64,000 bases of DNA, from assembly GCA_965203465.1 (NCBI GenBank), contig CBDBCR010000003.1, positions 416,001-480,000 of the forward strand, written 5' to 3'. Below, one piece after another: positions 3,001 through 28,373 of the stretch (position 1 is its first letter; each line of letters begins with the position of its first letter). Position numbers and translations under genes: made by a program. The stretch is from Nitrosopumilaceae archaeon (lineage in GTDB: Archaea; Thermoproteota; Nitrososphaeria; Nitrososphaerales; Nitrosopumilaceae). The notes beneath the pieces are model-generated. The model ran no database searches, was not told where the DNA came from, and worked only from the letters and a program-made list of their open reading frames with translations.

Positions 3001-5835
3001 CACGGTCCTGGAGAAGGTGTGCACGCCGGTGGCCCCGTCGAGCGTCGAGAACCGGCCCTGCCCCCGCCCCGGCGCGTCCGAGCGCGAAGACGTAGCCTGC
3101 GGCGAGGCCGGATCCGAAAGGTCGATTATCTGGAAGCCGTCGTCGTCGTAGGAGGCCACGATCGCGTACACTTTTGCGCCGACCGTGACCGTCTCTATTC
3201 CGGTCGCCCCGTCCAGCTCCGCAAACGTCCTGTCGCCCGGGTCGAGGTCCCCGTCCAGCACGGCCTTGACCGCCAGCGGATCCTCCGGATTCGAGACGTC
3301 TATTATCTGCACGCCGTCGGAGACCTCGGCCGCTATGGCCGCGTACGTTTTCGTGGCGCCGTTCTTCGTTACGGCGAACGTGTCCACAGAAGCTGCCCCC
3401 TCCAGCGCCGCGAATGCCGTGCCTGCCGAATCCTGGCCGCGCCGCGTGAACGGATCCCCGGAGGCGTCTACCGACAGCAGTTTGCTGTCGCCGTCGTTGG
3501 GCGTCTGCCTCTCCGATATGGGGCTGCGGAATATGCTCCCTTTGGAATAGCCGTACCCGAAGGACGCCTCGAGCCAGTCGTCGGACTTGAGGCCGGGGGT
3601 GTCGTTGTCGTTCATCACCAAAAGCCTGCTGGGCGCCGTCTCGATTCTGTCTATCTGGACCGGATGCCCGTTGGCGTCGGTGGTTCTGGCGTTGCCCCGG
3701 CTGTCCGTGAGCGACTTCCAAGCGGTCGCGCGGTTTGCAGGATCCGCCCAGTCGGATCCCTTGTCCACTACCAGCACCCACGTGTTTATGGAGACCCCGC
3801 CCAGCGGCACCTCGAACTTGGTGTCGTATCCCCGGATGGGCTCGCTCCTCGTCACCGGGATCGGATCCCCTGCACTGTCAAAGTAGGCGAACGGATCGAA
3901 CGTGGCCTGGCCGTACCCTCCCCTGCCCTGCGCGTAGAGCACCTCCCTGCCCTGCGAGTCGGTCTGCTTTTGCTGGTTGGAATACACGGACCTGAAGTTG
4001 GGCGCAGAGGCGGTCCCGTCGGCCGCCACGTTTTCGTTGAACTCCATTATCAGGAATCCGCCCGGGAACAGCGTCGTCTTGCCCGCGTCCGAGGCCACTA
4101 TGACGTAGTGCTTCGAGTTGACGGTAAAGTAGTCCAGATCTTTGGCGCCGCGCAGCTGCGAAAAGGCTCCCCCTGCCGGATCCAGCGCGTCGTGCCTTAC
4201 GGTCCTGACCTTTTGAATGTCGGTTATGTTCGTTATGTCGAATATGTCGACGGCGCCGCTGCGGTGAGTCGCGACCAAGGCGAACTTTTTGGAGCCCACA
4301 TCGGCGATTTCCATGTCGTACGGTACGCCAGAGGTGGCGTGGGAGGACACGGGCGCGGAGTTGTGCGGATCGCCGATGTCTATGAGCTGCAGGCCGTCCT
4401 CGGAGCCCGAAGCCACCAAGGCGTACGTCTTTCCGCCCTGCTCTAGCAGCTTTACGTCGCGCGGCCCTCCCAGCGTGGTGAATATGCCCTGCCCGTCGTG
4501 CGCCGAAGAGATTGCACTCGGGTTGCCCTGTGAGACGATGGTGTTGAGTGTGAATTCCACGTAAGCCGACGCTTGCGTGACCGTGTTCTTTGTGGATACG
4601 GCCCGTATGCTGTTGGGGCCGGCCTTCAGCACCACATCGATGCTCCACGCGCCGGTGGTCGCATGCGCGCTGCCGGTCGCCAGCGCCACGCTCCCGTCGC
4701 CGTCACGGTACAGACTCACCGAAGAAGCGGCGGGGGCCGTGCCCCGTATGGTCTGCGTGGCCGCCGTGAACGTGCCCGGCTGAGTGGTGATCACCGTGCC
4801 GGGCGGATCGTACCTTATCGTGACGGCGGCCGAAGCTGGCGACGTGTTGCCCGACCTGTCCGTCGCCTTCGCCGTTATGGCGTTGTCTCCGGGGGCGAGG
4901 CGCACCGTCTTTGACCACGCGCCGGCCGCATCTGCCATGACCGTGCCGCGCACGGCCTCGCCGCCGATGTACACGGCCATCCTGGAGTTGGCCTCGGCCG
5001 TCCCCTTCACGTCGAGGTACGGCGTGGTCTGGAGGCTGGCCGCGTTGGTGACGGCGGGCGCGGGCGGCGCGATGCGGTCGAGGACGCGAACCGTGCCGCC
5101 CGGCTCGTTGCCGGCAGAATCGGCCAAGTCGCCCGGGCCCCGGTTGTACGTGAGCAGCAGGTCGGGGTTGCGGTTCGCCAGGTTGGCCGATATAGTCAGG
5201 GCCGTCGGGGCGTTCCCCTGCGACGAGATCGTCCGCGTGCCGGCGTCGCTGCCGGACAGCGTCCATGTGCCCGTCGCGTCGCCGCCCATGCGGATGATCT
5301 CGCTGAACGTCAGTGTTATGCTGTCGAGCGAGGTCGCGCGCGCCGTGAACGTGGGGCCGATGCCGTCCGATACAGGTATGCCGGAGCTGTCGGCCAGCTT
5401 GTTGCCCGCAAGATCCGCGATGTCGCCGGCCGGAATCAGGTTGGGGCCGCACTCGTACTGCGCGAATATGCCCCACCTGGCCGTGTCGCGGATGCACCCC
5501 GCGCCGGTCGTCGAATATGCGACTGTTATGCCGTCCGGCGTCGTGTCCGGCAGGTTTCCGTTGAGCGTAAAGACGACGGTGTCGGTCCCGGAATTCAGAT
5601 TCAGTGAAGTTCCGATGGATATGCGCAGCGTGCCCAGATCCCCGCCGGCCGCGCTCCACCCGGTGCGCGCGTTCTGTGCGGTCTTGACCGGCTCGCTGAA
5701 CTTTACCGTGATCTCGTTGGGGGCAGTAGCCGTCGCGCTGAGTATGGTGGGCGTAGTGGCCTCTGCCAGCGGAACCGCGAGCGCGAGGGCGGCAGATACG
5801 GCGATCGCCGCTACCAGTCGGCTAGGCGTGCCCAA
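1..5835 (-). CDS. Giant secreted surface protein, 3' end outside window (>1,940 aa): signal peptide, Ig-like/SwmB-like repeats, LVIVD-type beta-propeller repeats
   Basis: Hand translation gives a continuous minus-strand frame from TTG 5835 (MGTPSRLVAAIAVSAALALAVPLAEA-TTPTILSATATAPNEITVKFSE) to the window edge. Repeated GVQIIDVSNP/GFQIIDLSDP/GLQIIDITNP motifs at about 1400-4500. All S/T/A/V-rich shadow ORFs on the + strand (47, 605, 1175 ... 4784) share one frame, consistent with one uninterrupted gene. Absent from the ORF track because it has no stop in the window. Confidence 0.88.
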   Translation of the reverse strand, partial: MGTPSRLVAAIAVSAALALAVPLAEATTPTILSATATAPNEITVKFSEPVKTAQNARTGWSAAGGDLGTLRISIGTSLNLNSGTDTVVFTLNGNLPDTTPDGITVAYSTTGAGCIRDTARWGIFAQYECGPNLIPAGDIADLAGNKLADSSGIPVSDGIGPTFTARATSLDSITLTFSEIIRMGGDATGTWTLSGSDAGTRTISSQGNAPTALTISANLANRNPDLLLTYNRGPGDLADSAGNEPGGTVRVLDRIAPPAPAVTNAASLQTTPYLDVKGTAEANSRMAVYIGGEAVRGTVMADAAGAWSKTVRLAPGDNAITAKATDRSGNTSPASAAVTIRYDPPGTVITTQPGTFTAATQTIRGTAPAASSVSLYRDGDGSVALATGSAHATTGAWSIDVVLKAGPNSIRAVSTKNTVTQASAYVEFTLNTIVSQGNPSAISSAHDGQGIFTTLGGPRDVKLLEQGGKTYALVASGSEDGLQLIDIGDPHNSAPVSSHATSGVPYDMEIADVGSKKFALVATHRSGAVDIFDITNITDIQKVRTVRHDALDPAGGAFSQLRGAKDLDYFTVNSKHYVIVASDAGKTTLFPGGFLIMEFNENVAADGTASAPNFRSVYSNQQKQTDSQGREVLYAQGRGGYGQATFDPFAYFDSAGDPIPVTRSEPIRGYDTKFEVPLGGVSINTWVLVVDKGSDWADPANRATAWKSLTDSRGNARTTDANGHPVQIDRIETAPSRLLVMNDNDTPGLKSDDWLEASFGYGYSKGSIFRSPISERQTPNDGDSKLLSVDASGDPFTRRGQDSAGTAFAALEGAASVDTFAVTKNGATKTYAAIAAEVSDGVQIIDVSNPEDPLAVKAVLDGDLDPGDRTFAELDGATGIETVTVGAKVYAIVASYDDDGFQIIDLSDPASPQATSSRSDAPGRGQGRFSTLDGATGVHTFSRTVAGADKTYAMITATGYDEDRGGGGFQLVDITDPARPVPAGNGRDGERCSTASRYNALGGATSADTAVIGGKLYSVVTGMFDDGIQLVQMDLSRRGSTLTVVDAITDDSGGYFALGSPRSSTVAQINGRTYVFAGSYKEALDEDAGRIVGDGGGVQIIDVTNPERPRPVAGLVDTDNTQFDLLKGVGDIDIFERGGRTYAIVTAQGEYGYESATKREGLGAFMILDVTNPENPRRAAGILGGQPYSDSDPAYDGPDKFNLTGPIGVDTTEIGGRTYAVIASNYELKNVSKEGVSIVDVTNPVSPKPVSWIERDSADSKRAPFDMLTRPFDVETFKIGSKTYAVVSAVQGRGDGLGGLQIIDITNPALPERASSYTNYLLQKVRGLSTININNSHTGNAEKTYVAVAVPEAIGRLFLLDVSDPSSPSFTNGISTHYYTRQPGDTRARAASAYSVDTYHLGEKAYAALTCNGTLSNTGHHCRGASIFEITAPHYIAQRGYVEDTDADDVRLADPRGIDTFVSGTTAYGAVASFGDSGVQIIRLGTVADTKKPAIREVGFNPDRGILEITFDELVRTGSAHVFLDRLAVNSEAGADADGRLSGAELITASDDTKMQISLSDAQKTEFAAAFESTPYPELDVSAGAFDDQAGNDIAARDDIEIKRVTTSPMLQHSVLELGPGLVRIFFSEAVDATPASRVDLSKFKVYKLEAPGQKISLSSSSLVTGSDDRTLVVKLDEADRRRIASLNDIPVMDLEAGAVRSSEGGHGSEASSANAFTRVYGDSTPPQLVSAVRSAGTLVLTFTEQVKVEPENFDLDQMLFYRQGDSANPTYLDDGTDGTPDASIATTLDSDAVTITLTPAQAAAMGSHKDLVLAMVLDGGLSAVTDLFGYGIGEASAPLRNPDGTGPALDSSEAPVFGSVGGTLTVTFSEGLWAARTDPSKFHVRDGAGNSDAAGQITPTPAELRAGTEGGDSVKFHLSEESAAAIVAMSDPHLYLDAGAVRGA

Positions 5836-5841
5836 GCGCTA

Positions 5842-5854
5842 CCCCCCCCCCCCC
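5842..5854 (-). repeat. G13 homopolymer (coding strand) 6 nt upstream of the giant-protein TTG
   Basis: 13 consecutive C on the + strand at 5842-5854. Confidence 0.95.
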
Positions 5855-5949
5855 GGAGCGGCCCGCTGCATGCGGGTGCCGAAGCTCGGGCTGGAGCGCG
5901 CCCGCTCCCGCGTCATGCCTGCTCATCTAGTGGACGGATTTGTCTGCGG

Positions 5950-5957
5950 TATTTAAA
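5950..5957 (-). promoter_or_regulatory. TATA box (TTTAAATA) for the leader ORF / giant protein 1
   Basis: AT-rich octamer in a GC-rich context, 31 nt before ATG 5926, the same spacing as at housekeeping genes here. Confidence 0.6.
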
Positions 5958-15103: not shown

Positions 15104-18100
15104 CTATTCGGGCCGGTCCATCTGCCCGTACCTGTCCAAAAAGATCCGCTCGGCGCGCTCGCGCTCGGACTGCAGGCTCTCCTGGAGCCGCTCCATCCTG
15201 TCGATGGCCGCGTGGACCGACTGCTCCGATTCTTCAAAGCCCTCGTGCCAGCCCTGCCTCCCGAGGTTCATCCTCTCGAGGACCGCCTTGGCCAGCTCTA
15301 TCTGCTCCTCCAGCATGCCGGCGAATTCGGGGTCCGACCTGTCGTAGCCCTGCATGGGGGTCCCGCGGTACGTGTACATCGACTCGTCTATGCTGTGGAA
15401 CAGCGACGAAATGTTGCGCAGCGGCTCGTATAGGCCGCCCGGCGAGAGCCGGTACAACGCGCCGTCCTCGCCGGCCATGACCTCGACGTTGTTGGAGCCC
15501 TCCGCTATGGGGTGCAGTACCAGGGAGCCCCCGTTGACGGCCACGCCGGGCACCGGGTTCATGGATTCGCCGGTTATCCGCAGGCCGTGGTTGAAGTAGT
15601 TCTGCCACGAGTTGCGCTGCGAATCCCACACGTCGGTGCCCACGATGTCGAATTCCAGCGGGGCGCGGAACGAGTGGTTTACTGTCACGGACAGGCACTC
15701 CAGGGCCGAGCCGGCGGCGCACTCGACCACCTCGTGCGAGGCCGACGGGGAATCGCCTATGGCGTTCTCCGGGTCTATGACCGAAAGGGCGCCGGTGCCG
15801 TCGTGCAGAATGTCGTAGTTTATGACGGCCTTGCTCTCCGATATGACCTCGCCGGAGCGCAGGCCGAACGCTATCGAGACGCGCTGTACGTTCTGCGGCC
15901 CCTCGTTCTCGTATATCTTTAGGGAGACGGTGTTTTGCTTTCCCACCTCGGATTCGATGAGCGGGTACGGGGTGAAAAAGTATTCCACGTCCGAGGCAAG
16001 GCCGTTGTAGGCAAAGCCGCCGTCCACCAGCCTGGCCCCGTACGCGTCGTAGCCGAGCGTCGGCGGGGTGCAGTCGTCGCATTCCGAGCCGCCCGAGACG
16101 CGGTAGGCCACGCCGAACACCGAAAAGTGCAGCGTCCAGACCGAGTCTTCCGAGACGCACGCGAGCGGATCGTAGGTCTCCGGCGGCCACAGGTCCGGCG
16201 CCTCCTGCAGCAGGGGCACGGCGCCCCCGTAGCCTTCGGCGCACGCGGGTATCGGCAGCACGTCTCCTGCCGCGTTTACGGTAAAGACCAGCCCCGAGAG
16301 CGGCACGTCGAATTCGATGCGGACCGGCTTGCTGAACGCTATATCGGATACGGGGCTGCCCACCAGCACCGCGGTCGCCGGGTTGCGCAATTCCGGGTAC
16401 GCGTCCAGCGCGGGCGAGCCTGACGGCACCTCGTAGTCGGACGGGGAGACCAGCACCGCCGCCTCCAGGCTGACGTCTGCCACAGTCAGCCCGGCAAGGC
16501 CTCCCACCTCTGTCCCGGCCTGGAAGAACAGGTCGGGCAGGCCCGGCTCGCGCGTGATCACGCTGAGCGGGTTTTCCAACTCGGCCGTCCGGCCGCCGGC
16601 GGACAGCACCCTCGGGTCGGTGGCCGAGGCCGAAGACAGATCCAGCGCCGGCTCTATGCCGGCCGGAACGGTGACGGTCCGCAGGGTGGTGCCCTTTGCT
16701 ATCGGCAGCACGCCGGTCGGGCCCGGCGAGGCCGCATCCGAGGACGCGCCTGCGCTGACCGGGCCCGACGGGCCGGGGTTGCCGGCGATGTCGCGCACTG
16801 CCAGGCCGCGCAGTATTGCGGACGGGGGCACCTCTCCCGCGCCGTCCCAGTACACCAGTATAGTTTCGCTGCCCGACCCGGAGACCGATGCCGCATACGT
16901 GACGGAGCTGACCTCGACCGAGGCGCCCGAGGCGCCGGCCAGCACGGGCTCGGAGTACCGGATCGTGGCCGAATCCGTGCCGCTCGCCGAGGCCGAGAGT
17001 ATCTCCGGCGGCACCGTGTCCACCGAGACGTTGGGGCCGGTCAGATCCCTCTCCGTGAACGAGGCCGGCGTGCCGGTCCTCGATTCTACTGTCAGCGAGA
17101 CGGACAGCGGGCCCTGTGGCGAGCCGGGCGGCACGGCGTACGAGGCCGTGAAGCCGTTCTCGGCAGGCATCACGGGTACCGAGTCCCCGTTTATCGACAG
17201 CGCCGGGTTTTGCACCTGTTCGGTCGCCCTGAACGATATAGATATCTGCTCGCCTGCCACGGCCAGGCCGCCCGAGGCCGACACCGTGAATTGGGATATC
17301 GCGACGCGCACGATGTTGTTCACCGACTGCACGGATCCCGAGTTTTGCGTATTGCCGAACAGGTCCGAGACGGGGCCGGCCAGCGAGACTGTCGGCGCGG
17401 AGCGCTCGTCGTATTCCGCGTCCAGTTTCAGCGTTACGGTCCCGCGCTCTTCCGATGCGGATACGGGCACCAGGCCGCCCACGTCAAAGTCCGACGGCGC
17501 CACCGTCGAGCCGTCCAGATCCTCGTGGAATATGGCGAGCACCGTGTCCGGCGATATCACGCTGGCAGAGACCAGCCTCGGAGGCGAGTCGTCTCCGATG
17601 GCAAGCTCTACGTCGGCCTGCGGGGCCGCGTTGCCCGACGTGTCCTCGAACTGCGCGCCGCGCGTCTCGAGGCGCAGGCTGGCAGATATGCTGTCCAGCA
17701 CCGCGTTCAGCGTGGACCGATCCACCTGCACGCGCACCTTGACCCCGTCCAAAGACACCGTGCCCGAGACGGGGATCTCTTGCGCGCCGCCCGTGACGCG
17801 GACGTGCGGGAGCTGCGCGCTAAACGCCGATGCGTCCATGGTCTCGTCGAATTCGAGCACTAGGACGGAGGTGTCTGTGTTGAGCGCGGCGGTGACCAGC
17901 CCCGGCCTGTCGTCGTCAGGCACCGTCCGCAGCGGCAGCGTGGCCGGCGCGCTGCCCGTCCCCGAGACGTCCCGAAACGCGCCCGCGCCCAATACCAGCG
18001 AGGGCGAGGGCTGCCCTATGGCGGCCTGCCTCTGCTGCTCGGTGAGCGTGACCGTCGCCGTGGAGCCCGATACCGAGACTTGGGCTCCGGCCAGGGAGCC

Positions 18101-21100
18101 GGATATGGAGAGCGGCGACGGATCCGCGGCCGGGCCCAGGTTCTCGTCGAACGATATTACCAAGATGCCGGTGCCCAGATCCAGGAAAGCCGAGCCGGCG
18201 ACGGGCGGCACCGCGTCTGCCGTCGCCGACACCCGCACGTCGGCCGCCTCCGAGGAGAGCCCGGCGCCGTCGGCCGCCGCGCCGGCGTCCATGCGCAGCG
18301 ACGGGGTCTCGAAGGCGACGGCCTGCTGGCGCTGCGCCTCGGAGAGGGTGAACGAAAGCACCGTTCCGGATGCGGACGGCAGCGGTATGCCGCCGGCCGA
18401 GCCGGACTCGCGCAGGTGCAGGCCGGAGGTAACCGTCACCCGCTCGGTGAACGTGACGGTCAACACCCCGGTGCCCTCGTTGAGCGCCGCGCCGTCTATG
18501 CGGGGTTTGAGGCCGTCCGATACCGGCACGGTCTGATCTGTCATCTGCTTGCCCGCCGAGTCTGCTATGTCGCCCACGCTGGCGTTGTACGAAATGGAGA
18601 GATCCGGCGCCGTGTCGGGCAAGTTCCCCGAGAGCGCCAGAATTACCGTGTCCGACGAGATTCCCGGGTACCCCGAGACGGACAGCCCCGTCGCGTCCGT
18701 CCCGGAAAGCGTCCAAGTGGTGCCCGCGTCGGTGGCAGAGCCCGCCGAATTCCGGGTGAGCGTGACCGTTATGGAATTGTCGGTTCCTGCCACAGCCGAG
18801 TCGATGCTCGGGCGCTGCTCGTCCGAGACGGCAGCGTTCGAGACCGAGGCCAGCACGTTGCCGGCCGAATCCGAGACGGTGCCGGCCGCCGAGTACGATA
18901 TCTTTAGATCCGCCACGTTGGCCGCAAAGTCCGCGCCGACCGCGATCGTCATCGTGCCCGAGTTGGACAGGGCAGAGACCGACGATACGGCCTGCGCGTC
19001 GGCGCCCGAGAGCGTCCAGTGCGATTTGTCGTTGTCCGAGCTGCTCACCTGCTCGCTGAACGCGACCAGTACCGTCCGGGAGTCGGTGACGCCGGCCGAG
19101 AACGTGGGCGCCTGGCCGTCCGTCAAATTCCGCTGCACCGAAGACGTGCCCAGGTTCAGGACGCCGTCGGATATTTTCGACTGGTCTATCGTCAGGGTGC
19201 CGGCGGCCCCGGTTCCGGCCGCCGGGCCGCCGAAGACCAGCACGTGCGCGGCGGCCGAGGTCTGGGTGTACGAGGTTATGGAGCGGGCCGTGCCCACGGT
19301 CAGGCCCGAGTACGCCCCTGCCGACGCGGTGACCGGCTCGCTGTACGTTATCGTGGCCCGGTTGGGCCCGGTTATTTTCGCCGAGGAGATCGTCGGGGGC
19401 AGGTTCTGCGAGACCGACACGGACTGGGCGGCGAGGGCGTTGCTAGAGCCGTCCCGGATATCCCCTGCGCTCGCTACGTAGGCGAGTTCTACGACGCCGA
19501 TCGGCGTGCTGAGGTTGCCGCTCAGCGTCAGCACGGTGCTGGAGGACGATATGGCCGGGTTGCCGCTGACCGTCACGCCGGCGGGCAGCCCGGAGCCCGA
19601 GAGCTGCCAGGTGGCCGAGGCGCCCGTGGAAGTGGCGCTGACCGCCTCGCTGAATGTGACGGTGATCTCGTTGAGAGCTCGCGACTCTGCCGAGACTATC
19701 GTGGGGGCGATGCCGTCCGACGGGCTAGCAGAGTAGGAGGCGAGCGCGTTGCCGCCGACGTCCTCGAGGTTGCCGCTTGACGCGTACGAGAGCGTGAAAT
19801 CAAGATTGGTCTTGTCCGCCAAGTTGTTGTCGAGCGTAAGCGTTGCCGTCGGGGCGGAATCCGAAGTCGGAAATCCGGCCGCCGCCGAGGCCCCCGTCGC
19901 GTCGCCCCTGTCGGTGCCCGAGACGTGCCAGCCGGACGGCACGGAACCGGAGGCGAGCCGGACCGGCTCGCTGAACGTGACTTCCACCGAGGTGCGCGAG
20001 ACGTATTTCGAAGACGAGACCGTCGGCGCGACGCCGTCCGACACGGTGGCGGTCGCCGGCTCCATGGCGTTGGACGAGGGATCCTGTATCGTTCCGGATC
20101 CCGAGCCGGCATCGCCTGGCACGTCGGTACCCGACGTCTCGTAGCGCAGTACCACGCCGTCGGGCCTGGTGTCTGCCAAGTCGGAGCTGAGCGTCAGTAC
20201 CACGGAGCTGCCCTCCGATACGGGGGTGCTCGAGTCGACCGTGTGGCTGGGCGCGTCGGTGCCCGATATGGACCAGCCTTGGCCGGTCTCGTCCGATACC
20301 GAGAGGTCTTCGCTGAACGTGACCGTTATCTCGTCGGGGGCCGTCGCCTTTGCGGTGAAGGTCGGGGCTATGCCGTCGCCTGCCGCAGTCGCCGGACGGG
20401 CCGCAAGGGCGTTGCCCGCCATGTCCTCTATGTTGCCGCCCGAGTACGCCACGTTGATCCTCGGCTTGGTGCTGTCCGCGATGTCGCCGTCCAGCGTCAG
20501 TGTTGCAGAATAGGCGACGCTGCCCGTCGTGATTCCCGATATGGACGATACCTGCCTGCTTTCCGCGTCGGCGCCCGATATCGTCCAGCCGAACGGCGCC
20601 GTGCCTGTATTTGCCAGCCCGACGCGCTCGGAAAACTGCACTTCTATGGTATTGCGCGAGGCGACCGTGGCGGACGAGACGGACGGGGCCGTCGCGTCCT
20701 TTGCTACGTCCATGGTGGCCGCCTCCGTCTCCCGGGACGGCCCGGCGCTGAAAGCTGCGGACTGGAGCACCAGTTCGGGCTGCGTCATGGACTGGACGCC
20801 GTCCAGATTCGTTCCCAGATCCACCAGTATCGTAGAATCGGAGGCGCCGGCCGTCAGGGTGGAGTTTGCCAGCTCCACCACGGGCGACGTGGTGCCCTTT
20901 TCGCGCACCGACGCCTTTGTCAGGTCGGACAGCTCCACGTCCATGTCCACGTCGAAACCCAGCACCAGCATGCCGTCGCCGATCCGGGCCGACTGCAGCT
21001 GGGGTATAGATATCTCCTGGTACCCCACCGTCTTTTCGTACACGTACCCCGCGCCGGAGCCTACGTGACCGCAGGTGACGCCAGCAGTGCAGCTCCACGA

Positions 21101-24100
21101 AGACGGATGGTATTCGACGCGCACCGTCGTGTCCTTCGTCCTGTCCAATACCGAGACGTCGAACGCGGCGGTCGCGATCAGCGTGTTGAACGGGTGCGTG
21201 CCGCCTACAAGCGCGGTGCTGCCGGACTCCCGCTTGTCGGCCACCACCGCCCCGTCCTGTATGAGGAATACGTGCCCCGTCCAGGCGCTGGAGCCCGGAC
21301 GCGACTGGTACCCCTCGCCGCTCTCGCCGTCGTCGGCCGTCACCGCGAACCGGTCGTTGGCGCCCAGCGCCGCGGTGAAGGACTTGCGGGGCTCAAAGCT
21401 CGTCAGCGAGGTGCTGGTGCTGGTCCTGTACTCTACGCTGTACATGCCGGCGGCGTTGGAGGCGCCGCCCGGCTCTTCCCACGCGCCCGCGCGCGCCTCC
21501 ATCCTGTACCCCGAGACCAGCCTGATTATCCCGTCGAACTCGTTCTCTATATCGGTAAGGGACGATTGCCCGGTGGCGTTATTTTTTATGCCGATGGTGA
21601 CATCGTTGCCCGAAAAAGTCGGGGCCAGCGACAGGTCCACCGAGCCGCGCGTCTTTTGCGGGGTGCTGTTGGTCACGAATATCTTGGTGGGATCGAAACT
21701 GGCCTGGTCGACGGGCCCGTCGAACGACAGTACGAGCCGCGGGTTGTCGAACTGCATGTCCAGTACCGCCGAGGAAATGTCCGACGTCTGGCCGTCGGCC
21801 AAGTTGCGCGAAAGGGACGCGCTGGTGCCCAGCGCGTTGCCTGCCGCGTCCTGTATCTGCGTGGCGTCCAGCGTCACGGAGCCGGTCGCGTCCGAGCCGG
21901 CAGCCGCCCCGGAGAACGTCAGGGTGTGCGTGTCGGTGGTGCCGCCGGACAGCGTCGATATGGTGCGCGCGGTCCCTACCAAGGCGGACGCATAGTCGGA
22001 CTGGGCCGCCGTGACCGCCTCGCTGTACGTTATGGTTATCTCGTTGGGGCCCGTTATCCGGGCGGACGTTATCTCGGGCTTTATGCCGTCCGATACCGCG
22101 ATGTTCGAGCGCGCTGCCAGCGCGTTGTTCGAGGTGTCCGCGACCGCCCCGGAGCCCGAGCCGGCGTCGGATCCCACGTCCGTGCCAGATATTTCGTAGC
22201 GCAGCGCGATGTCCGGATTCGTGTCGGGCAGGTTCCCCGAGAGCGTCAATACCACCTCGGTCGCGCCCGACGAGATGTCCGAGTTTTGGGTCACATGCAG
22301 AGTTCCCGCGTCGGTCCCCGATACGGACCAGCCCTCGCCGCCCGTGTGTGTTGTCTTGGCCTTTTCGCTGAAAGTCACCGTTATCTTGTTCAGCGCCGTA
22401 GCCTCTGCGGACACGATCGTGGGGGCCACGCCGTCGGGCGTGAGGCCGATCACCGTGCCGTCCGTGTTTGCCGCGATGGCGTTGGGCGGCACGCCGCTGT
22501 TTGTCATAGTTATGGCGTCGTTTATGGCGCCGGCCGCGACGTACAGGTGCGGGGCGGTCATGGCGATGGCGCCCTGCCTGCTGTCCTCGGTCAGCTCGAA
22601 CTTGAACTCGGCGCCGTCCTGCTGCCCCGACTGGATCTCCGCGGTGGACAGTACTACCTCGCCTGCGAGGTTGTCCGTCGCGCTGGCGCCGTCGCGCAGC
22701 TCGAACTGCGCGCCGTTCGCGCTGGAGACGTCGACGGTCTCGTCGAACGTGATGGTCAATATTCCGGTGCCCTCGTCTAGCGCTACAGAAGAGACCTCCG
22801 GGGGCGAGGTGTCGAAGGTCTGGTCCATGTCGGTGCCGTCCGCGTCGGCATCGTTGGCGTTGGGCGCCCTGCCGCTGTTGGCCATCGTTATGGCGTCGTT
22901 TATGGCGCCGGCCACCGCGTACAGGTGCGGATCGGCCAAGGCGATGACGCCCTGGCGGCTGGTCTCGCTGAGCTTGAACTTTAGCTCCAGCCCGTCCGAC
23001 TGCCCCGGCTGGATCTCCGCGGTGGACAGTACTACCTCGCCGGCGAGGTTGTCCGTCGCGCTTGCGCCGTCGCGTATCTCGAACTTTGCTCCGTCCGCGC
23101 TGGAGACGTCGACGGTCTCGTCGAACGTGACGGTCAGTATTCCGGTATCCTCGTGCATGTCCGCAGACGAGACTGACGGGGCGTCGTCGTCGAAGGTCTG
23201 CGAGATGTCGGTGCCGGCGGCCTTTGCAGCTATGGAGTTGGCCGTCGGCGTGGCCGTGTCGGTTATGGCGCCGGCGGCGATGTACATGTGCGGATCGCTC
23301 AAAGATATGACGGCCTGTCGGCTCGTCTCGTTTAGAACGAACTTGAACGCGGTGCCGTCCGACTGGCCCGACTGGATCTCGGCCGTGGACAGGGTCACCT
23401 CGCCGGCGGAGCCGTCGGCCGCGCTGGCGCCCCCGCGTATCTCGAACTGCGTGCCGTCGCTGGCGCTCGACACGTCTACTGTCTCGCTGAACGTGAGCGT
23501 CAGTATCCCGGTGCCCTCGTCGAGCGCGGCCGACGAGAGTGTAGGCGCGGTGGTGTCGTTTGTGGTCGACACGGCCTTGGTCACGGCGTGGAGCGGGTTG
23601 CTACTCATATCCCGTATCGCATCGACTATGACAAACCTGACGTGCAGGTCGGCGTACCCGGCCGCGGCCGTCCGCTGCCCCGAGGTCAGCGTTACCGTTA
23701 TGGACACGCCGTCGACAGACTGGACGGTCGCCCCGCTCAGCGCGGTGCCGCCCGAGGCGGCGGCGCCGTCTTGCAGGCGCACGTGCTGAAGGCGGAGGCT
23801 CGAAGCGTCCATAGCCTCGTTGAACGTGAGTGTCAGGACGCCGGTTGCGTCGTCGAGCGAGGCCGAGACGAGCGTGGGCGGCGTCCCGTCAAGGGTTCGC
23901 GTGTCCACCGTCCGGGTATCGGCGGGGTTGTTACCGCCCAGGCCGCTGACCGCCCCGGACGGCAGGCGCACGACGTTCAGCGCGGTCGCCTGAGCCAGCC
24001 CCTTTTGGCGCTGCGCATCCGTCAGGGTGAAGATCAGATTTTTGCCGGAGACGGTGGCGTCTGCCACCGAAAGCCGCACGTGCGTGGCCGCGTTGTACGT

Positions 24101-26053
24101 GGCCCCGACGCTGTCGAGCATGTCGATGCTGCCGGCGCCCCGCGTCACGTCGTAGGAGAACGTTATCGTCACGACGCCCGGATTGGGGTTGAAGTTGAAA
24201 TGCGTGTGGGTTACGCGCGGGGGCTCGATGGTCAGGGGCACTGACTGCGCCGCGTTCGAGAGGCCCGAGACGGTGGCCGCGTTGGCCTCGGCGTACATCG
24301 TCGGCGTGTTCATGGCCGCCACCCGCGCGTACTCGGCGGCCGTCAGCTTTGCAGAGTGTGTGACCGCCGTGCCGGACAGCGTCAGATGTACGTCGGTGCC
24401 CGGCGTGAACGCGTCGTCCCCGGCGGGCCCCACGTACACCCTGCCCGGGATAGGCGGCGCGGCGACCCGCTCGCTGAACGTGGCCGACAGCGTCAGGCTC
24501 GACGGCGCCAAGTGGGCGGAGGCAAGCCGCGGCGAGAGGACCACGTCCTGCCCCGAGGTCAGCGCGTCGTTGCCTGTGCCGCCCGAATCGACTGCCGCCG
24601 AGGCGCCCAGGTACACGTACGGGCTGGACATGGCGTTGATCTTGGTCAGGGCGCTCGAAGCCCACGTGAACGTGAGCGCGGAGCCGGATGCTGAGACCGC
24701 GCTGTGGCTTGCGGCCACCCGCACGTCCGTCGCGGCGTCGTGCGCGGCGCCGGGGCCGTCGCGTATGTCGATGTTGCCGGTCCCCTTCGTGACGGACTTG
24801 TCGAACGTGAGCACGGCCGCCCCCGAGGCCCGGTCTATCGTGGCGGCCGACAGGCGCGGGGGCGGCTCGCCGACCGTCAGCGACACGACCGCCTTGCCGT
24901 TGGCCGCGCCCTCCGAGTCTTTGACGGCCCCGGCCTCGAGGTGCAGGTGCGGCGTCTGCATGGCCTGCACCTTTGCCACCCCGCCCGACGTGAGCGTCGA
25001 GGTGCCGACCGTGCCGGATATGGCCAGGACGCCGGCCACGTCGGTGGCCAGGTCGTAGTCGCCCGAGGCGCTTCCGCGTATGTAGAACGCGCCGTTCTCC
25101 CTCGTGACCGCCTCGTCGAACGTGACCGACAGGGCGCGCGTGGAGGGTAAAAGATCCGCCACGGTGGGCCGCGGCAGGAAGTTTATCGCCTTTTGCATGA
25201 CGGCGTTGTCCTGTTGCACAGTAGAGCTGAAATTGTTGTTCACGCCAGAAAACGCCTTGGCGTCGACGTGCAGGTGCGGGTGCGCGTACGCGACGACCGT
25301 GTTGACCTGGGTCGAGGTGAGAACGAACCGTATCTCGTGCGGAGGCCAGCGGTGCACGCTGGGGGTGTTGTCGTCCTTGTTCATGGTGATGCCCCCGGTC
25401 GAGGCCGTCGAGCCGTCGCGTATGTGGAATTTTGTGGAGTTGTCTCCGTGCGTGTTGTATAGGTTGTCAGGAAAACTGGCGCCGTTGAGGTAATTCCCAT
25501 AAGTCAGGGCCTCGTCCGCGACTATGGACAGCACCCCGCTTGCCCTGTCCAGCGTGAGGGTGACGATCTCCGGCTTGGCGTCGTCGTGTGATACCGGCAC
25601 ACGCGGCCCGTGCCGCCCGTCCTGGCCGGGCACTCCGTACTGCGGGAGGGCCGTCTGGGTGTCTGCTGACCGCAGCGCCGAGCCGTCTATGTAAAGGGAC
25701 ATAGCACCTGCGGTAATCCTGCGTATGATTTCTCCGGCATACGGCAGATAGTACACCTTTACCGTGTTCCCTTCGAATTCCATGGAAGAGCCGGTCGCGC
25801 TGCGGATTTCGCTGGAGGAAGAGTAGCCCCTCTTGAGCACTATCTTGCCCAGCGCGTCCTCTTCGCTGGTCTGCCATTCCATCGGGGTGTTGAGGGTTAT
25901 GGTCAGGACGCCGGCCCACGTGCCGTCGTTGTTGGTGTCCAAGGCCACGCTGGACACCGAAGGCGTCGTGGCGTGCGCCTCCGATACGGCGCCGGCCGCC
26001 GCCAAGCAGAGGACCGCCGCCGCAAGCGATCCCGCGCACAGCCTGCTTTGCAT
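15104..26053 (-). CDS. Giant secreted surface protein (3,649 aa) built of Ig-like/SwmB-like repeats with a Cys-containing C-terminal domain
   Basis: ORF track. Signal peptide MQSRLCAGSLAAAVLCLAAAGAVSEAHA. Many P..SSA.LD..TG.LT.TF.E and P....A..T..N.ITVTFSE...D..GN.L repeats. Confidence 0.92.
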   Translation of the reverse strand: MQSRLCAGSLAAAVLCLAAAGAVSEAHATTPSVSSVALDTNNDGTWAGVLTITLNTPMEWQTSEEDALGKIVLKRGYSSSSEIRSATGSSMEFEGNTVKVYYLPYAGEIIRRITAGAMSLYIDGSALRSADTQTALPQYGVPGQDGRHGPRVPVSHDDAKPEIVTLTLDRASGVLSIVADEALTYGNYLNGASFPDNLYNTHGDNSTKFHIRDGSTASTGGITMNKDDNTPSVHRWPPHEIRFVLTSTQVNTVVAYAHPHLHVDAKAFSGVNNNFSSTVQQDNAVMQKAINFLPRPTVADLLPSTRALSVTFDEAVTRENGAFYIRGSASGDYDLATDVAGVLAISGTVGTSTLTSGGVAKVQAMQTPHLHLEAGAVKDSEGAANGKAVVSLTVGEPPPRLSAATIDRASGAAVLTFDKSVTKGTGNIDIRDGPGAAHDAATDVRVAASHSAVSASGSALTFTWASSALTKINAMSSPYVYLGASAAVDSGGTGNDALTSGQDVVLSPRLASAHLAPSSLTLSATFSERVAAPPIPGRVYVGPAGDDAFTPGTDVHLTLSGTAVTHSAKLTAAEYARVAAMNTPTMYAEANAATVSGLSNAAQSVPLTIEPPRVTHTHFNFNPNPGVVTITFSYDVTRGAGSIDMLDSVGATYNAATHVRLSVADATVSGKNLIFTLTDAQRQKGLAQATALNVVRLPSGAVSGLGGNNPADTRTVDTRTLDGTPPTLVSASLDDATGVLTLTFNEAMDASSLRLQHVRLQDGAAASGGTALSGATVQSVDGVSITVTLTSGQRTAAAGYADLHVRFVIVDAIRDMSSNPLHAVTKAVSTTNDTTAPTLSSAALDEGTGILTLTFSETVDVSSASDGTQFEIRGGASAADGSAGEVTLSTAEIQSGQSDGTAFKFVLNETSRQAVISLSDPHMYIAAGAITDTATPTANSIAAKAAGTDISQTFDDDAPSVSSADMHEDTGILTVTFDETVDVSSADGAKFEIRDGASATDNLAGEVVLSTAEIQPGQSDGLELKFKLSETSRQGVIALADPHLYAVAGAINDAITMANSGRAPNANDADADGTDMDQTFDTSPPEVSSVALDEGTGILTITFDETVDVSSANGAQFELRDGASATDNLAGEVVLSTAEIQSGQQDGAEFKFELTEDSRQGAIAMTAPHLYVAAGAINDAITMTNSGVPPNAIAANTDGTVIGLTPDGVAPTIVSAEATALNKITVTFSEKAKTTHTGGEGWSVSGTDAGTLHVTQNSDISSGATEVVLTLSGNLPDTNPDIALRYEISGTDVGSDAGSGSGAVADTSNNALAARSNIAVSDGIKPEITSARITGPNEITITYSEAVTAAQSDYASALVGTARTISTLSGGTTDTHTLTFSGAAAGSDATGSVTLDATQIQDAAGNALGTSASLSRNLADGQTSDISSAVLDMQFDNPRLVLSFDGPVDQASFDPTKIFVTNSTPQKTRGSVDLSLAPTFSGNDVTIGIKNNATGQSSLTDIENEFDGIIRLVSGYRMEARAGAWEEPGGASNAAGMYSVEYRTSTSTSLTSFEPRKSFTAALGANDRFAVTADDGESGEGYQSRPGSSAWTGHVFLIQDGAVVADKRESGSTALVGGTHPFNTLIATAAFDVSVLDRTKDTTVRVEYHPSSWSCTAGVTCGHVGSGAGYVYEKTVGYQEISIPQLQSARIGDGMLVLGFDVDMDVELSDLTKASVREKGTTSPVVELANSTLTAGASDSTILVDLGTNLDGVQSMTQPELVLQSAAFSAGPSRETEAATMDVAKDATAPSVSSATVASRNTIEVQFSERVGLANTGTAPFGWTISGADAESRQVSSISGITTGSVAYSATLTLDGDIADSTKPRINVAYSGGNIEDMAGNALAARPATAAGDGIAPTFTAKATAPDEITVTFSEDLSVSDETGQGWSISGTDAPSHTVDSSTPVSEGSSVVLTLSSDLADTRPDGVVLRYETSGTDVPGDAGSGSGTIQDPSSNAMEPATATVSDGVAPTVSSSKYVSRTSVEVTFSEPVRLASGSVPSGWHVSGTDRGDATGASAAAGFPTSDSAPTATLTLDNNLADKTNLDFTLSYASSGNLEDVGGNALASYSASPSDGIAPTIVSAESRALNEITVTFSEAVSATSTGASATWQLSGSGLPAGVTVSGNPAISSSSTVLTLSGNLSTPIGVVELAYVASAGDIRDGSSNALAAQSVSVSQNLPPTISSAKITGPNRATITYSEPVTASAGAYSGLTVGTARSITSYTQTSAAAHVLVFGGPAAGTGAAGTLTIDQSKISDGVLNLGTSSVQRNLTDGQAPTFSAGVTDSRTVLVAFSEQVSSSDNDKSHWTLSGADAQAVSSVSALSNSGTMTIAVGADFAANVADLKISYSAAGTVSDSAGNVLASVSNAAVSDEQRPSIDSAVAGTDNSITVTLTRNSAGSATDAGTTWTLSGTDATGLSVSGYPGISSDTVILALSGNLPDTAPDLSISYNASVGDIADSAGKQMTDQTVPVSDGLKPRIDGAALNEGTGVLTVTFTERVTVTSGLHLRESGSAGGIPLPSASGTVLSFTLSEAQRQQAVAFETPSLRMDAGAAADGAGLSSEAADVRVSATADAVPPVAGSAFLDLGTGILVISFDENLGPAADPSPLSISGSLAGAQVSVSGSTATVTLTEQQRQAAIGQPSPSLVLGAGAFRDVSGTGSAPATLPLRTVPDDDRPGLVTAALNTDTSVLVLEFDETMDASAFSAQLPHVRVTGGAQEIPVSGTVSLDGVKVRVQVDRSTLNAVLDSISASLRLETRGAQFEDTSGNAAPQADVELAIGDDSPPRLVSASVISPDTVLAIFHEDLDGSTVAPSDFDVGGLVPVSASEERGTVTLKLDAEYDERSAPTVSLAGPVSDLFGNTQNSGSVQSVNNIVRVAISQFTVSASGGLAVAGEQISISFRATEQVQNPALSINGDSVPVMPAENGFTASYAVPPGSPQGPLSVSLTVESRTGTPASFTERDLTGPNVSVDTVPPEILSASASGTDSATIRYSEPVLAGASGASVEVSSVTYAASVSGSGSETILVYWDGAGEVPPSAILRGLAVRDIAGNPGPSGPVSAGASSDAASPGPTGVLPIAKGTTLRTVTVPAGIEPALDLSSASATDPRVLSAGGRTAELENPLSVITREPGLPDLFFQAGTEVGGLAGLTVADVSLEAAVLVSPSDYEVPSGSPALDAYPELRNPATAVLVGSPVSDIAFSKPVRIEFDVPLSGLVFTVNAAGDVLPIPACAEGYGGAVPLLQEAPDLWPPETYDPLACVSEDSVWTLHFSVFGVAYRVSGGSECDDCTPPTLGYDAYGARLVDGGFAYNGLASDVEYFFTPYPLIESEVGKQNTVSLKIYENEGPQNVQRVSIAFGLRSGEVISESKAVINYDILHDGTGALSVIDPENAIGDSPSASHEVVECAAGSALECLSVTVNHSFRAPLEFDIVGTDVWDSQRNSWQNYFNHGLRITGESMNPVPGVAVNGGSLVLHPIAEGSNNVEVMAGEDGALYRLSPGGLYEPLRNISSLFHSIDESMYTYRGTPMQGYDRSDPEFAGMLEEQIELAKAVLERMNLGRQGWHEGFEESEQSVHAAIDRMERLQESLQSERERAERIFLDRYGQMDRPE
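22440..23560 (-). repeat. Three tandem ~121-126-aa repeat units within giant protein 2
   Basis: CTGGATCTCCGCGGTGGACAGTACTACCTC at 22631 and 23009 (378-bp period); variant copy at 23372. Confidence 0.85.
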
Positions 26054-26057
26054 CTCG

Positions 26058-26069
26058 CCCCCCCCCCCC
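26058..26069 (-). repeat. G12 homopolymer (coding strand) between the TATA box and ATG of giant protein 2
   Basis: 12 consecutive C on the + strand. Minus-strand context TTATAA-GAGCC-G12-CGAG-ATG. Confidence 0.95.
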
Positions 26070-26074
26070 GGCTC

Positions 26075-26080
26075 TTATAA
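26075..26080 (-). promoter_or_regulatory. TATA box (TTATAA) of giant protein 2
   Basis: Same TTATAAG heptamer as upstream of aroC (36892-36886). A second AT-rich box lies at 26104-26097. Confidence 0.6.
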
Positions 26081-26205
26081 CCATAACCGTCGCGGGTTAA
26101 ATATCCGCTAGGCCGCGCCGGGCCGCAAGTACGCGCGGGGCCGCAGATTCCCGTCAACGCCGCCCGCGTGAAGAGATCGGCGCCCGCGCCGGGCCGGGGC
26201 GCGCA

Positions 26206-27093
26206 TCACCTGCGCCCGAGCATCGCAAGCAGCAGCGCCTTTTGCGCGTGCAGCCGGTACTCGGCCTCGTCCCAGACCGCCGAGCGAGGGCCGTCTATGA
26301 CCGAGGCGTCCACCTCTACCCCGCGCTTCGCCGGCAGGCAGTGCAGGAACACCGAGTCGCCGGCCGACGCATTCATGAGGGCCTCGGTGACGCGGTACTT
26401 TGGGGACAGTTTCTTGATCCTGCCCGTCCCGCCGTGCATGGAACTGAACGTGTCGGTGGCCACCACGTCGGCCCCCGCCGCCGCCTCGGCCGGATCGCGC
26501 AACAGTTCCACGGCGCCGCCGGCCGCCTCGACCACCCCGCCGTCCGGCTCGAGGCCCGCCGGCGTGGCCACCCGCATCCGGGATCCGGCCAGCGCGCACG
26601 CCTCTATGAGTGAGTTGCACACGTTGGAGCCGTCCCCTATCCAGGCGATCTCGAGCTTGTCCGTCCTGCCCTTGCGGTCCAGCATGGTGGCAAAGTCGGC
26701 CAGCGCCTGGCACGGGTGGTGCGTGTTGGACAGGCCGTTGATGACCGGCACCGAAGAGTGGCGGGCCAGCTCCTCGACCTCCGAGTGCGCATAGACGCGC
26801 GCCATGATGCAGTCTACGTACCGCGAGAGCGTCCGGGCGGTGTCGGCCGCCGACTCTCCGCGCGATGTCTGCATGGATTGCTGATCCAGGTTGAGCGCGT
26901 GCCCTCCGAGCTGCGCCATGCCGGCCTCGAAGCTTGCCCGCGTGCGCGTGGACGGCTTGCAGAAGATCATCGCCATCGTCTTTCCCTTCAGCGGCTGCCC
27001 GCGCGCGCCGCGCTTTTTAATCGAGACGGCCCGCCTCACCAGGTAGGAGAACTCTTTCCTGCCCAGATCCGAGACAGCCAGAAAGTCCTTCAT
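26206..27093 (-). CDS. argF: Ornithine carbamoyltransferase
   Basis: STRTR, HPCQ and HCLP motifs. ATGA overlap with the ftsY stop. Confidence 0.95.
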   Translation of the reverse strand: MKDFLAVSDLGRKEFSYLVRRAVSIKKRGARGQPLKGKTMAMIFCKPSTRTRASFEAGMAQLGGHALNLDQQSMQTSRGESAADTARTLSRYVDCIMARVYAHSEVEELARHSSVPVINGLSNTHHPCQALADFATMLDRKGRTDKLEIAWIGDGSNVCNSLIEACALAGSRMRVATPAGLEPDGGVVEAAGGAVELLRDPAEAAAGADVVATDTFSSMHGGTGRIKKLSPKYRVTEALMNASAGDSVFLHCLPAKRGVEVDASVIDGPRSAVWDEAEYRLHAQKALLLAMLGRR

Positions 27094-28373
27094 TTGAAGA
27101 ACCTCGAAAACCCGCGCTTTTTCTTTGAACCGGGCCGCCCCTGCGCTATCCACTCCCTGATGCGCTCGGCCGCCGCGGCCGCCTCGGAGTCGGACTCGGG
27201 AGGCGGCATGTCGTGCAGCTTTGCGTATTCGGAAATGTCCGCGTCCTCGATGCCGGCGAACGGATCGGATTCTGCCTGCTCTGCCCGCGGTTCCGGCGCA
27301 GGTTTCGGTTCGGGTTCGGGCGCCTCTGCGGGTTCCGCACGCGGTTCCGCGGGCCCGGGCTCTGCCGGTTCCGGCGGCGCTGGTTCCGGCGCAGGTTTCG
27401 GTTCGGGTTCGGGTGCCTCTGCGGGTTCCGCACGCGGTTCCGCGGGCCCGGGCGCCGGATCGATCGCCGGGGAGGCCTGCGATCCGAAGACGGCCTCCAT
27501 GAACAGGTCCTTGTCGAACGGCCTCAGGTCGCCGTACTCCTGCCCCGTGCCGACGAATATGACCGGCCTGCCGGTAGCGTGCGCTATCGAGAGCGCCGCG
27601 CCGCCGCGCGCGTCCGCGTCGGCCTTTGTGAGCATGGCCGCGTCGAACTCGGTGTGCCTGTAGAACTCGCCCGCCTGGCTGAGCGTGTCGTTGCCGGCCA
27701 GCGAGTCGCCGACGAATATCTTGAGGTCCGGCTTGACCACGCGCGTTATCTTGGATATCTGCTCCATGAGGTTGGAGCTTGTCTGCATGCGGCCGGCCGT
27801 GTCCACCAGGACGCAGTCGGTGCCGTGCGACTTCGCGTACAGGACCGCGTCGCGCGCCACCGCGGCCGGATCCGATCCGTAGTTCTGCGCCACTATCTTG
27901 ACGTTGAGCCTCTTTGCGTGCTCTTTGAGCTGCTCGATGGCCCCCGCGCGGAACGTGTCGGCGGCGGCTATGACCACCGAGTGCCCCGAGGCGCGCAGCA
28001 TGTGGGCCACTTTGGCCAGCGTGGTGGTCTTGCCCGTGCCGTTTATGCCGACGAACACGACCACGCACGGCCCCTCCGAGCCGGACACCCGGGACAGCAG
28101 GTCCACGCTCCCGGCGCCGTCGAGCACCGACGAGACGGCCCCGACCAGCGCGGCGCGTATGGCCTCCTGCGCCGACTTTTTCTCCACCACGGCGCCCACC
28201 AAGCTTTCGCGCGCGCGCCCGCGTATGGCAGAGGCCACCTCCACCGAGACGTCCGACTGCAAAAGCGCCATCTCCAGCTCCTCGAGCGCCCCGTCCACCT
28301 CGCCGGCCCCCAGCGCCCGCTCGCCGAGGCGCTTCGAGGCGGCAGAGAACGCCCCCTTTAGCCGCTCAAACAT
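27090..28373 (-). CDS. ftsY: SRP receptor GTPase FtsY with Pro/Glu-rich C-terminal linker
   Basis: GINGTGKTTT, DTFRAGAIEQL, DTAGR, TKAD, GGAALS motifs. Confidence 0.95.
   Translation of the reverse strand: MFERLKGAFSAASKRLGERALGAGEVDGALEELEMALLQSDVSVEVASAIRGRARESLVGAVVEKKSAQEAIRAALVGAVSSVLDGAGSVDLLSRVSGSEGPCVVVFVGINGTGKTTTLAKVAHMLRASGHSVVIAAADTFRAGAIEQLKEHAKRLNVKIVAQNYGSDPAAVARDAVLYAKSHGTDCVLVDTAGRMQTSSNLMEQISKITRVVKPDLKIFVGDSLAGNDTLSQAGEFYRHTEFDAAMLTKADADARGGAALSIAHATGRPVIFVGTGQEYGDLRPFDKDLFMEAVFGSQASPAIDPAPGPAEPRAEPAEAPEPEPKPAPEPAPPEPAEPGPAEPRAEPAEAPEPEPKPAPEPRAEQAESDPFAGIEDADISEYAKLHDMPPPESDSEAAAAAERIREWIAQGRPGSKKKRGFSRFFK
27289..27453. repeat. 72-bp direct repeat (two copies, 93-bp offset, 1 mismatch) in the FtsY linker
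   Basis: 27289-27360 vs 27382-27453, encoding PGPAEPRAEPAEAPEPEPKPAPEP twice. Confidence 0.9.

Follow-up and report, generated by a model that had tools for sequence, protein, structure and literature searches.

Can an archaeon switch a surface gene through the length of a homopolymer in its promoter? The question is raised by a stretch of 64,000 nucleotides (nt) of a Nitrosopumilaceae archaeon, hereafter the window, in which a run of 12 G residues lies between a TATA-like box and the start codon of a gene encoding a giant secreted or surface protein of 3,649 amino acids (aa). On the minus strand the sequence is TTATAAGA-GCC-G12-CGAG-ATG, or in a longer form ggTTATAAGAgcc-G12-CGAG-ATG, with 4 nt between the tract and ATG 26053. 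Re-reading this strand gave the same layout as a preliminary description of the locus, which had also reported that only two homopolymers longer than about 7 nt occur in the 64 kb, both 4-6 nt before giant-gene starts. Indeed, among the 12 homopolymers of at least 7 nt in the window, only C12 at 26058-26069 and C13 at 5842-5854 exceed 7 nt, and they lie 4 and 6 nt from such starts. The organism encodes archaeal AmoA, indicating that it is an ammonia-oxidising archaeon, and matching DNA occurs in public runs labelled sponge and marine metagenome. We propose that the G12 run may be a slippage-prone contingency tract in the spacer between TATA box and start codon, at present in a weak or OFF state; from the sequence evidence, we consider the chances of this reading being right or wrong to be evenly balanced. 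The features of the locus are the following.

26058..26069, minus strand: G12 homopolymer (C12 on the plus strand), candidate slippage switch (sequence, genome run count, contig of public run X3).
26073..26080, minus strand: proximal TATA-like box TTATAAGA, first base 27 nt before the ATG (sequence, position weight matrix).
26097..26104, minus strand: distal AT-rich box ATATTTAA (sequence, position weight matrix).
26053..26051, minus strand: start codon ATG of the giant gene (sequence).
26082..26084, minus strand: upstream ATG, whose open reading frame (ORF) 25467..26084 is out of frame with the giant ORF at G12 (sequence, ORF list).
15104..26053, minus strand: giant secreted or surface protein gene, 3,649 aa (ORF, domains, paralog search), with a signal-peptide-like N-terminus ending AHA-TTPS and Big_5 Ig-like domains.

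The tract belongs to a class that is found throughout the genome. In the assembly (G000; 2.26 Mb, 65% G+C, contigs C1-C4; relatives are labelled G001 and so on), runs of G or C of 7, 8 and 9 nt number 172, 20 and 3, whereas those of 10 to 16 and of 18 nt number 4, 8, 10, 10, 7, 6, 2 and 2. Run lengths are thus bimodal, with a second mode at 12-13 nt, and 49 runs of at least 10 nt were observed against about 0.5 expected by extrapolated decay. No second length mode was found for A or T runs anywhere in the genome. The G12 tract thus has a length of the hypermutable, over-represented kind that characterizes contingency loci. A same-orientation tract of at least 11 nt was present at the 5' end of 14 of the 15 open frames of at least 2,000 aa, and a same-orientation 5' tract in 4 of the 56 frames of 1,000-1,999 aa. 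Since the chance of a tract of given orientation in a 1-kb window is 0.011 (49 tracts, 2 x 2.26 Mb), the figure for the giant genes corresponds to p ~1e-26. An AT-rich 8-mer was detected within 25 nt upstream of 13/49 tracts, compared to 6% of random windows (p = 4e-6), while downstream of the tracts the frequency (4/49) was not significant. The preliminary description had suggested looking for an enrichment of runs of at least 10 nt before giant genes, and the link turned out to be far stronger than the window alone could show; the random distribution of long G runs that would have spoken against a switch was not observed, either at giant genes or with respect to promoter boxes. A run of at least 10 nt is missing from one giant gene only, that at C3:719400-719520 on the minus strand, which carries the interrupted tract GGGGAGGGGGG in the arrangement ATAAATAT-9 nt-GGGGAGGGGGG-CGG-TTG, with 31 nt from TATA box to TTG. 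Judged by its sequence, GGGGAGGGGGG resembles a tract that a G-to-A change has fixed at the ON spacing.

The position of the tract relative to the promoter was then considered. Over the whole genome, AT-rich 8-mers upstream of ATG candidates most often begin 30 nt from the start (127, 158 and 136 cases at 29, 30 and 31 nt, over a background of about 45). This mode is in agreement with the TATA-to-start distance of 29-32 nt that had served as calibration in the preliminary description and, as the genome is dominated by leaderless promoters, the argument drawn from spacing is sound. The proximal box of the target lies 27 nt from the ATG, a deficit of 3 nt, so that by its position the tract is placed where a change in length would be expected to alter expression. 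This placement differs from that between the -35 and -10 elements of a sigma-70 promoter, since the host is an archaeon whose promoters have their TATA box at a constant 30 nt; the resemblance to such bacterial switches is one of mechanism only. A 12-nt motif, expressed as a position weight matrix (PWM) refined on 194 ATG promoters, has its first base at a modal distance of 33 nt from the ATG, at 32-35 nt in 168/194 promoters and at 30 nt or less in only 5/194. The proximal match at the target, TGGTTATAAGAG at -30 (score 6.8, 13th percentile), therefore falls in the lowest 2.6% of offsets; a distal match, GCGGATATTTAA at -55, has a score of 7.8 (21st percentile). As the proximal motif is 3 nt too close, the optimum would be G15, and the leaderless spacing of 32-35 nt would be reached at G14-G17.

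These distances suggest the following mechanism. The tract would fill most of the spacer between a TATA box conserved in the family and the leaderless ATG of an Ig-like surface protein. Archaeal RNA polymerase is expected to initiate at a fixed distance from the TATA box, here normally on the first base of the start codon, and gain or loss of G residues by replication slippage would shift the transcription start site (TSS) relative to the ATG. At G12, the predicted start is about 3 nt inside the ORF, which would produce a messenger RNA (mRNA) without start codon, a weak or OFF state. At G15, and tolerably at G14-G16, transcription would start on the A of the ATG, giving the ON state. The proposal of the preliminary description, G12 as weak or OFF and G14-15 as ON, is thus supported as far as spacing is concerned (the optimum of G15 agrees with its range), but no length variation was found, the one public contig that spans the tract also having G12 (see below). 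We compared the predicted TSS with the start for seven tract promoters with a nearby start; their grouping as leaderless-type was made post hoc, with the distances already seen.

C3:507089: G15, predicted TSS minus start 0.
C3:519272: G15, predicted TSS minus start 0.
C4:5436: G13, predicted TSS minus start 0.
C1:1025001: G14, predicted TSS minus start -1.
C2:113230: G13, predicted TSS minus start -1.
C3:277247: G11, predicted TSS minus start +3.
Target: G12, predicted TSS minus start +3.

The first and sixth of these are paralogs, and the difference between them (G15, 0 versus G11, +3) is mostly one of tract length. At six more tract-bearing promoters of surface genes the predicted TSS lies -7 to -14 from the start, implying short leaders, and in 5/6 of them a GGTG word directly follows the tract.

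The distal box allows a different explanation. If this box were used, the TSS would be near 26074-26075 and the tract would lie inside a leader of about 21 nt, forming a G-rich element 4 nt before the AUG that could act as a Shine-Dalgarno-like site or as an RNA structure or target; in a variant of this explanation, tract length tunes translation gradually or has no effect. The distal box does score higher than the proximal one (7.8 versus 6.8), the 16S ribosomal RNA ends in ...GGATCACCTCCT (CCUCC end), with which G-runs could pair, and three other giant genes have their tract remote from any TATA box, with 6-8 nt between it and a TTG start. A variable G-repeat in a leader is moreover a known regulator in the case of H. 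pylori tlpB (PMC8295292). However, the distal box is unshared by the paralogs, except for a recent pseudogene copy, whereas the tract-bearing paralogs of the target family repeatedly show a TATA box 2-11 nt ahead of the tract. In addition, the tract is mostly upstream of the predicted TSS at 13 loci, and ordinary leaderless promoters of this genome show no Shine-Dalgarno signal. A leader element therefore appears unlikely to us. The preliminary description had also raised the possibility of a translational frame switch, in which initiation at ATG 26084 would give a fusion to the giant ORF at G11 or G14. Its arithmetic is correct, as the upstream ATG does come in frame at these two lengths, and such a mode appears to be used by two surface genes (C3:223043, C3:326667) and by a DndB gene described below. 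Use of this codon at the target is nevertheless very improbable: no AT-rich box is found about 30 nt before 26084, the distal box being 20 nt away and the proximal box overlapping the ATG, and a complete signal peptide directly follows ATG 26053.

Tracts were also found at genes for DNA modification. In this genome they are present in the genes of three N6_N4 DNA methylases, of DndB, of a ParB_N protein and of a beta-helix protein; a gene for an Eco57I/MmeI-type methylase (C1:61487) carries one close to its 3' end. The methylase and DndB tracts range from G11 to G16. In the relative G016, tracts directly precede methylase and DndB ORFs, and in G003 they directly precede ORFs for Mrr, a methylase-Mrr fusion, GT2, GT4 and a 1,667-aa cupredoxin protein. 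Tracts are therefore enriched in surface, glycosylation and restriction-modification (R-M) genes, as they are in known contingency loci. When tract length alone was altered in silico and the ORFs were re-read, seven genes proved intact save for a frameshift at the tract, and five of them were restored whole by a length change, bearing in mind that homopolymer lengths in assemblies can err by one. Methylases C1:337285, C1:966321 and C3:752279 and the surface gene C3:223043 (1,361 aa) were restored by -1 or +2 G, and DndB C3:833922 by +1 or -2 G. The surface gene C3:326667 (2,438 aa) likewise responded to +1 or -2 G, its downstream frame being followed within 7.3 kb only, and the Eco57I-type methylase C1:61487 became about 90 codons longer at -1 or +2 G, an addition that we take to be its C-terminal part. 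Genes broken at the tract alone are the signature of phase-variable genes and not of old pseudogenes, although annotators would otherwise be likely to label many tract-bearing genes as such. The four methylases and DndB (C1:337285, C1:966321, C3:752279, C1:61487 and C3:833922) are candidate archaeal 'phasevarions'.

Tract length was also compared between related copies. The N-terminal domain of the target is present in eight paralogous copies in this genome. In one paralog (C1:343055) the promoter is a plain ATTAAATT-22 nt-ATG and lacks a tract. A decayed copy of the target 5' end (C1:940350-941050; 58% protein identity, 4 stops) has retained the same promoter with nearly identical flanks, but with G6 instead of G12. 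These two copies indicate that tract length changes faster than its flanks. Paralogous copies differ by G12 versus G6 and by G11 versus G15, and tract lengths differed in 3/4 tract pairs in which both 40-nt flanks are at least 75% identical. Similarly, the DndB tract is G14 in this genome and G10 in G016. Two giant-gene paralogs, C3:193317 and C2:85243, carry CTG where a third, C3:609216, has a GTG start, and the signal peptide is not preceded by any other in-frame start; either CTG serves as initiation codon or neither copy has a working start.

Seventeen public runs were listed, all contigs, and the very fragmented contigs of four of them (X3, X4, X8 and X13) were aligned to the locus. The sole contig crossing the tract, X3 record 11 (26034-26533, 0 gaps), has an identical C12, with just 24 letters to the left of it, and X13 record 5 aligns as far as 26063, its other 351 letters not matching the stretch compared. 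No insertion or deletion at the tract was found among the alignments listed for the contigs of these four runs, and none of the public runs listed that contain the stretch was an RNA run. A 3-nt deletion was present in contigs of X3 and X8 at window position 26015, in a GCG repeat of the signal-peptide region, which makes this trinucleotide repeat, 40 nt from the tract, variable in length at strain level. An exact 24-mer scan and a protein-pattern scan of JGI metagenomes gave no match. With the target N-terminus as query, orthologues were not found in 30 genomes of the family, nor in G001-G004 and G016. A DNA search of the genus matched relatives only at the upstream neighbour, whose gene ends 137 nt from the tract:

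26206..27111, minus strand: aspartate/ornithine carbamoyltransferase gene, 5' end approximate (sequence, domain).

In the fragmented genus assemblies G001 and G002, many poly-G tracts lie within about 100-300 nt of contig starts (examples from G002 are C2:76, C5:39, C24:16 and C108:68), which suggests that short-read assemblies break at such tracts, perhaps from heterogeneity or from a drop in coverage. Long-read assemblies are error-prone in homopolymer length, and an assembly or sequencing artefact thus had to be considered for the G12 tract itself. This explanation is scarcely credible, since the same C12 was obtained in the independent X3 contig, similar tracts are present in other assemblies, including single-contig genomes, and their positions are non-random.

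The orientation of the tracts followed a simple rule. In the relative G003, assembled as one contig of 3.21 Mb, 56 of the 59 tracts of at least 10 nt fit a pattern of three segments.

0.06-0.64 Mb: G on the minus strand, 10/10.
0.92-2.24 Mb: G on the plus strand, 30/32.
2.52-3.10 Mb: G on the minus strand, 16/17.

The orc1/cdc6 gene at 0.90 Mb marks one of the two strand-switch points. In the present genome, the plus and minus counts are 16 and 1 on C1, 4 and 0 on C2, 1 and 23 on C3, and 3 and 1 on C4; orc1/cdc6 is at C1:114,018 and the single minus-strand tract of C1 lies to its left. Roughly the same strand pattern was seen in G016 (about 12/15 tracts). The G-run sits on the strand running with the replication fork, and its orientation follows the direction of replication. 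If only one orientation is tolerated, poly-G may be subject to a strand-specific constraint during archaeal replication.

In every case the G-run lies on the sense strand of the following gene, as might be expected of a fixed structural element, a rigid or quadruplex-prone G:C block on the non-template strand that would set promoter strength or exclude chromatin proteins without any switching. Runs of at least 11 G could in principle fold into a quadruplex. However, the sense-strand bias is accounted for by the replication rule, the giant genes being co-oriented with the fork; tracts also occur within coding regions and upstream ORFs, and paralog C1:343055 has none. We regard a structural element as quite improbable.

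The strand rule speaks for another explanation, in which the tracts are a mutational by-product: without mismatch repair, G-runs in GC-rich spacers would expand by slippage in the tolerated orientation and persist at fast-evolving or dispensable genes and at the edges of mobile elements, without being switches. Their orientation does track replication and not gene function, and runs of G5-G8 are common in ordinary spacers of this genome. Tracts of at least 12 nt were detected in 73/301 genomes of the class (71/299 leaving out two unpublished genomes). Loads of at least 10 such tracts are limited to this family, in which they are spread over several genera and reach a maximum of 129 per genome (G239 129, G291 116, G305 82, G271 69, G209 53), while genomes outside the family carry at most 4. 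Heavy loads in several genera, like the many tracts that border repeated elements in G003 and in this genome, would be expected of a by-product. In several repeat families, poly-G lies exactly at the edge of the conserved part, one flank being conserved and the other unique. Such tracts are found here at C1:313680, C1:689437, C1:812532 and C3:87241, and at C1:584527, C1:903000 and C3:85262, and examples in G003 are at 635825, 924522 and 1642589, and at 1782772 and 2202577. One family, Gn-TGRACNANTTT..GGAT, is common to both genomes. The tract-bounded repeats gave no Rfam match at E <=0.1 and no transfer RNA (tRNA) match, the tRNA search excluding a tRNA-derived origin for the 'GGGCGTTTCGTGCCTACGGGCC-Gn' repeat, and they may be the ends of mobile elements. 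On the other side, tracts at the 5' ends of nearly all giant genes are hard to obtain without selection, as is their repeated presence, in three genomes, at genes for methylases, DndB, Mrr and glycosyltransferases; the broken genes show no other damage over 300-2,400 codons, and five of the seven promoter tracts are within 1 nt of the optimal spacing. For these reasons we consider a mere by-product distinctly unlikely.

A contingency tract is favoured by the result that MutS_V was found neither in this genome nor in 23/24 relatives, so that slippage errors should be poorly repaired, if established knowledge applies here. The presence of MutS or NucS failed to separate tract-rich from tract-free relatives. 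Several observations weigh against a contingency tract. No length heterogeneity was seen, the sole spanning contig also having 12 residues, and individual ON or OFF calls lose weight because a long-read assembly may miscount a homopolymer by one. The proximal box is weak; the score of the distal box ATATTTAA is slightly above its own. The base before the target ATG is G, whereas position -1 is C in 61% of leaderless promoters. Exact leaderless registration is not universal, as shown by the six promoters with a TSS 7-14 nt upstream, and the leaderless-type group itself was delimited with hindsight. Finally, most tracts of G003 are at the edges of repeated elements and not at promoters, indicating that tracts can arise without switch function. 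The reading further presupposes variation of tract length within the population, use of the proximal box and an expression level that depends on length, three steps that we infer.

The second tract of the window is arranged differently.

5842..5854, minus strand: G13 tract, 6 nt before the TTG start of a 6,134-aa gene (sequence, run count).
1..5835, minus strand: 5' part of this giant gene, TTG start at 5835, with LVIVD, EPTP and Ig-like domains (ORF, domains).
5950..5957, minus strand: TATA box TTTAAATA, 31 nt before ATG 5926 (sequence).
5822..5926, minus strand: leaderless-type upstream ORF, 34 codons at G13 (sequence).

From its TTG, the giant gene spans more than 1,945 aa inside the window and 6,134 aa in the genome. 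The upstream ORF starting at ATG 5926 reads through G13 and overlaps TTG 5835. With a tract of G12 or G15 its stop codon would be TAG 5841-5839, which leaves 3 nt to the TTG. An upstream in-frame ATG was excluded for this tract, as a TAG follows it in the main frame. The arrangement Gn-(0-2 nt)-stop-NNN-TTG is found at three giant genes (this one, C1:648377 and C3:790376), which suggests that termination of the upstream ORF may be coupled to initiation in a length-dependent manner.

Taken over the whole genome, the tracts lead us to a wider proposal, which we advance tentatively and with slightly less than even confidence. Some sponge-associated Nitrosopumilaceae-like archaea may run a genome-wide 'phasome', in which dozens of poly-G tracts would randomly switch giant surface proteins, R-M methylases, DndB and glycosyltransferases between ON and OFF; one mode would be specific to leaderless genes, each G deciding whether the transcript keeps its AUG, and a single orientation relative to the fork would be tolerated. 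In bacteria, phase variation is central to the biology of interactions with hosts and with phages. If these tracts do switch, an archaeal symbiont would bet-hedge its giant adhesin-like coat together with its DNA-modification systems, with a bearing on the escape of sponge symbionts from phagocytosis and viruses. The tracts would also provide a natural experiment on archaeal TSS choice as a function of distance from the TATA box, and on the 5' sequence tolerated by leaderless mRNAs. The strand rule is a separate clue to the handling of poly-G by the archaeal replisome.

The preliminary description knew of no such switch in Thaumarchaeota. Our full-text searches, with supplementary files outside their scope, likewise retrieved no report of such tracts in this group or of an archaeal TATA-spacer switch, and term look-ups in genome papers on sponge Thaumarchaeota found no mention of such tracts. 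In a 2025 review, surface structures and R-M systems are given as the main phase-variable classes and archaea are listed as ground for future surveys (PMC11868660); variable poly-G tracts are mentioned for Campylobacter in another report (PMC539331). Orsi et al. 2010 proposed homopolymer tracts at gene 5' ends as general prokaryotic switches, archaea included, but their signal came from poly(A)/(T) tracts of 5-8 nt within coding genes (18 archaeal genomes), neither poly(C)/(G) tracts nor tracts exceeding 8 nt being 5'-biased (PMC2831843). Unlike the present analysis, that work did not deal with promoters, Thaumarchaeota or tracts of 10-18 nt (PMC2831843). The G-repeat in the H. pylori tlpB leader is under the control of the small RNA RepG (PMC8295292). 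It resembles our case as a variable G-repeat just before a start codon, which would be relevant if the distal box is used and for tracts in long leaders such as that at 5842-5854, but its mechanism is post-transcriptional and gradual, and no C/U-rich antisense small RNA was found in our case, no search aimed at one having been made.

Promoter-spacer homopolymers phase-vary bacterial surface proteins in the case of the poly-G of Neisseria porA, the poly-C of opc and the poly-C of Bordetella fim. In both situations poly-G/C lies inside the core promoter of a surface gene, slippage alters (or here would alter) a critical spacing, and many paralogous or unrelated surface genes per genome carry tracts. 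However, the bacterial tract sets the spacing between -35 and -10 elements and hence sigma factor binding, whereas in a TATA/TFB-type promoter the tract would shift the start relative to a leaderless codon, affecting inclusion of the AUG rather than polymerase recruitment. The 'phasomes' of Campylobacter, Haemophilus and Helicobacter, with their mod 'phasevarions', are comparable in that they comprise tens of long poly-G tracts per genome, concentrated at genes for surface structures, glycosyltransferases and R-M systems, many of which have lost their frame at the tract and show no other defect. The present case differs in its host, a sponge archaeon of 65% G+C and not an AT-rich bacterium, and in that its variation is a prediction from the sequence. 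It differs further in the giant size of its targets (2,000-9,000 aa) and in an orientation of the tracts that tracks replication almost without exception.

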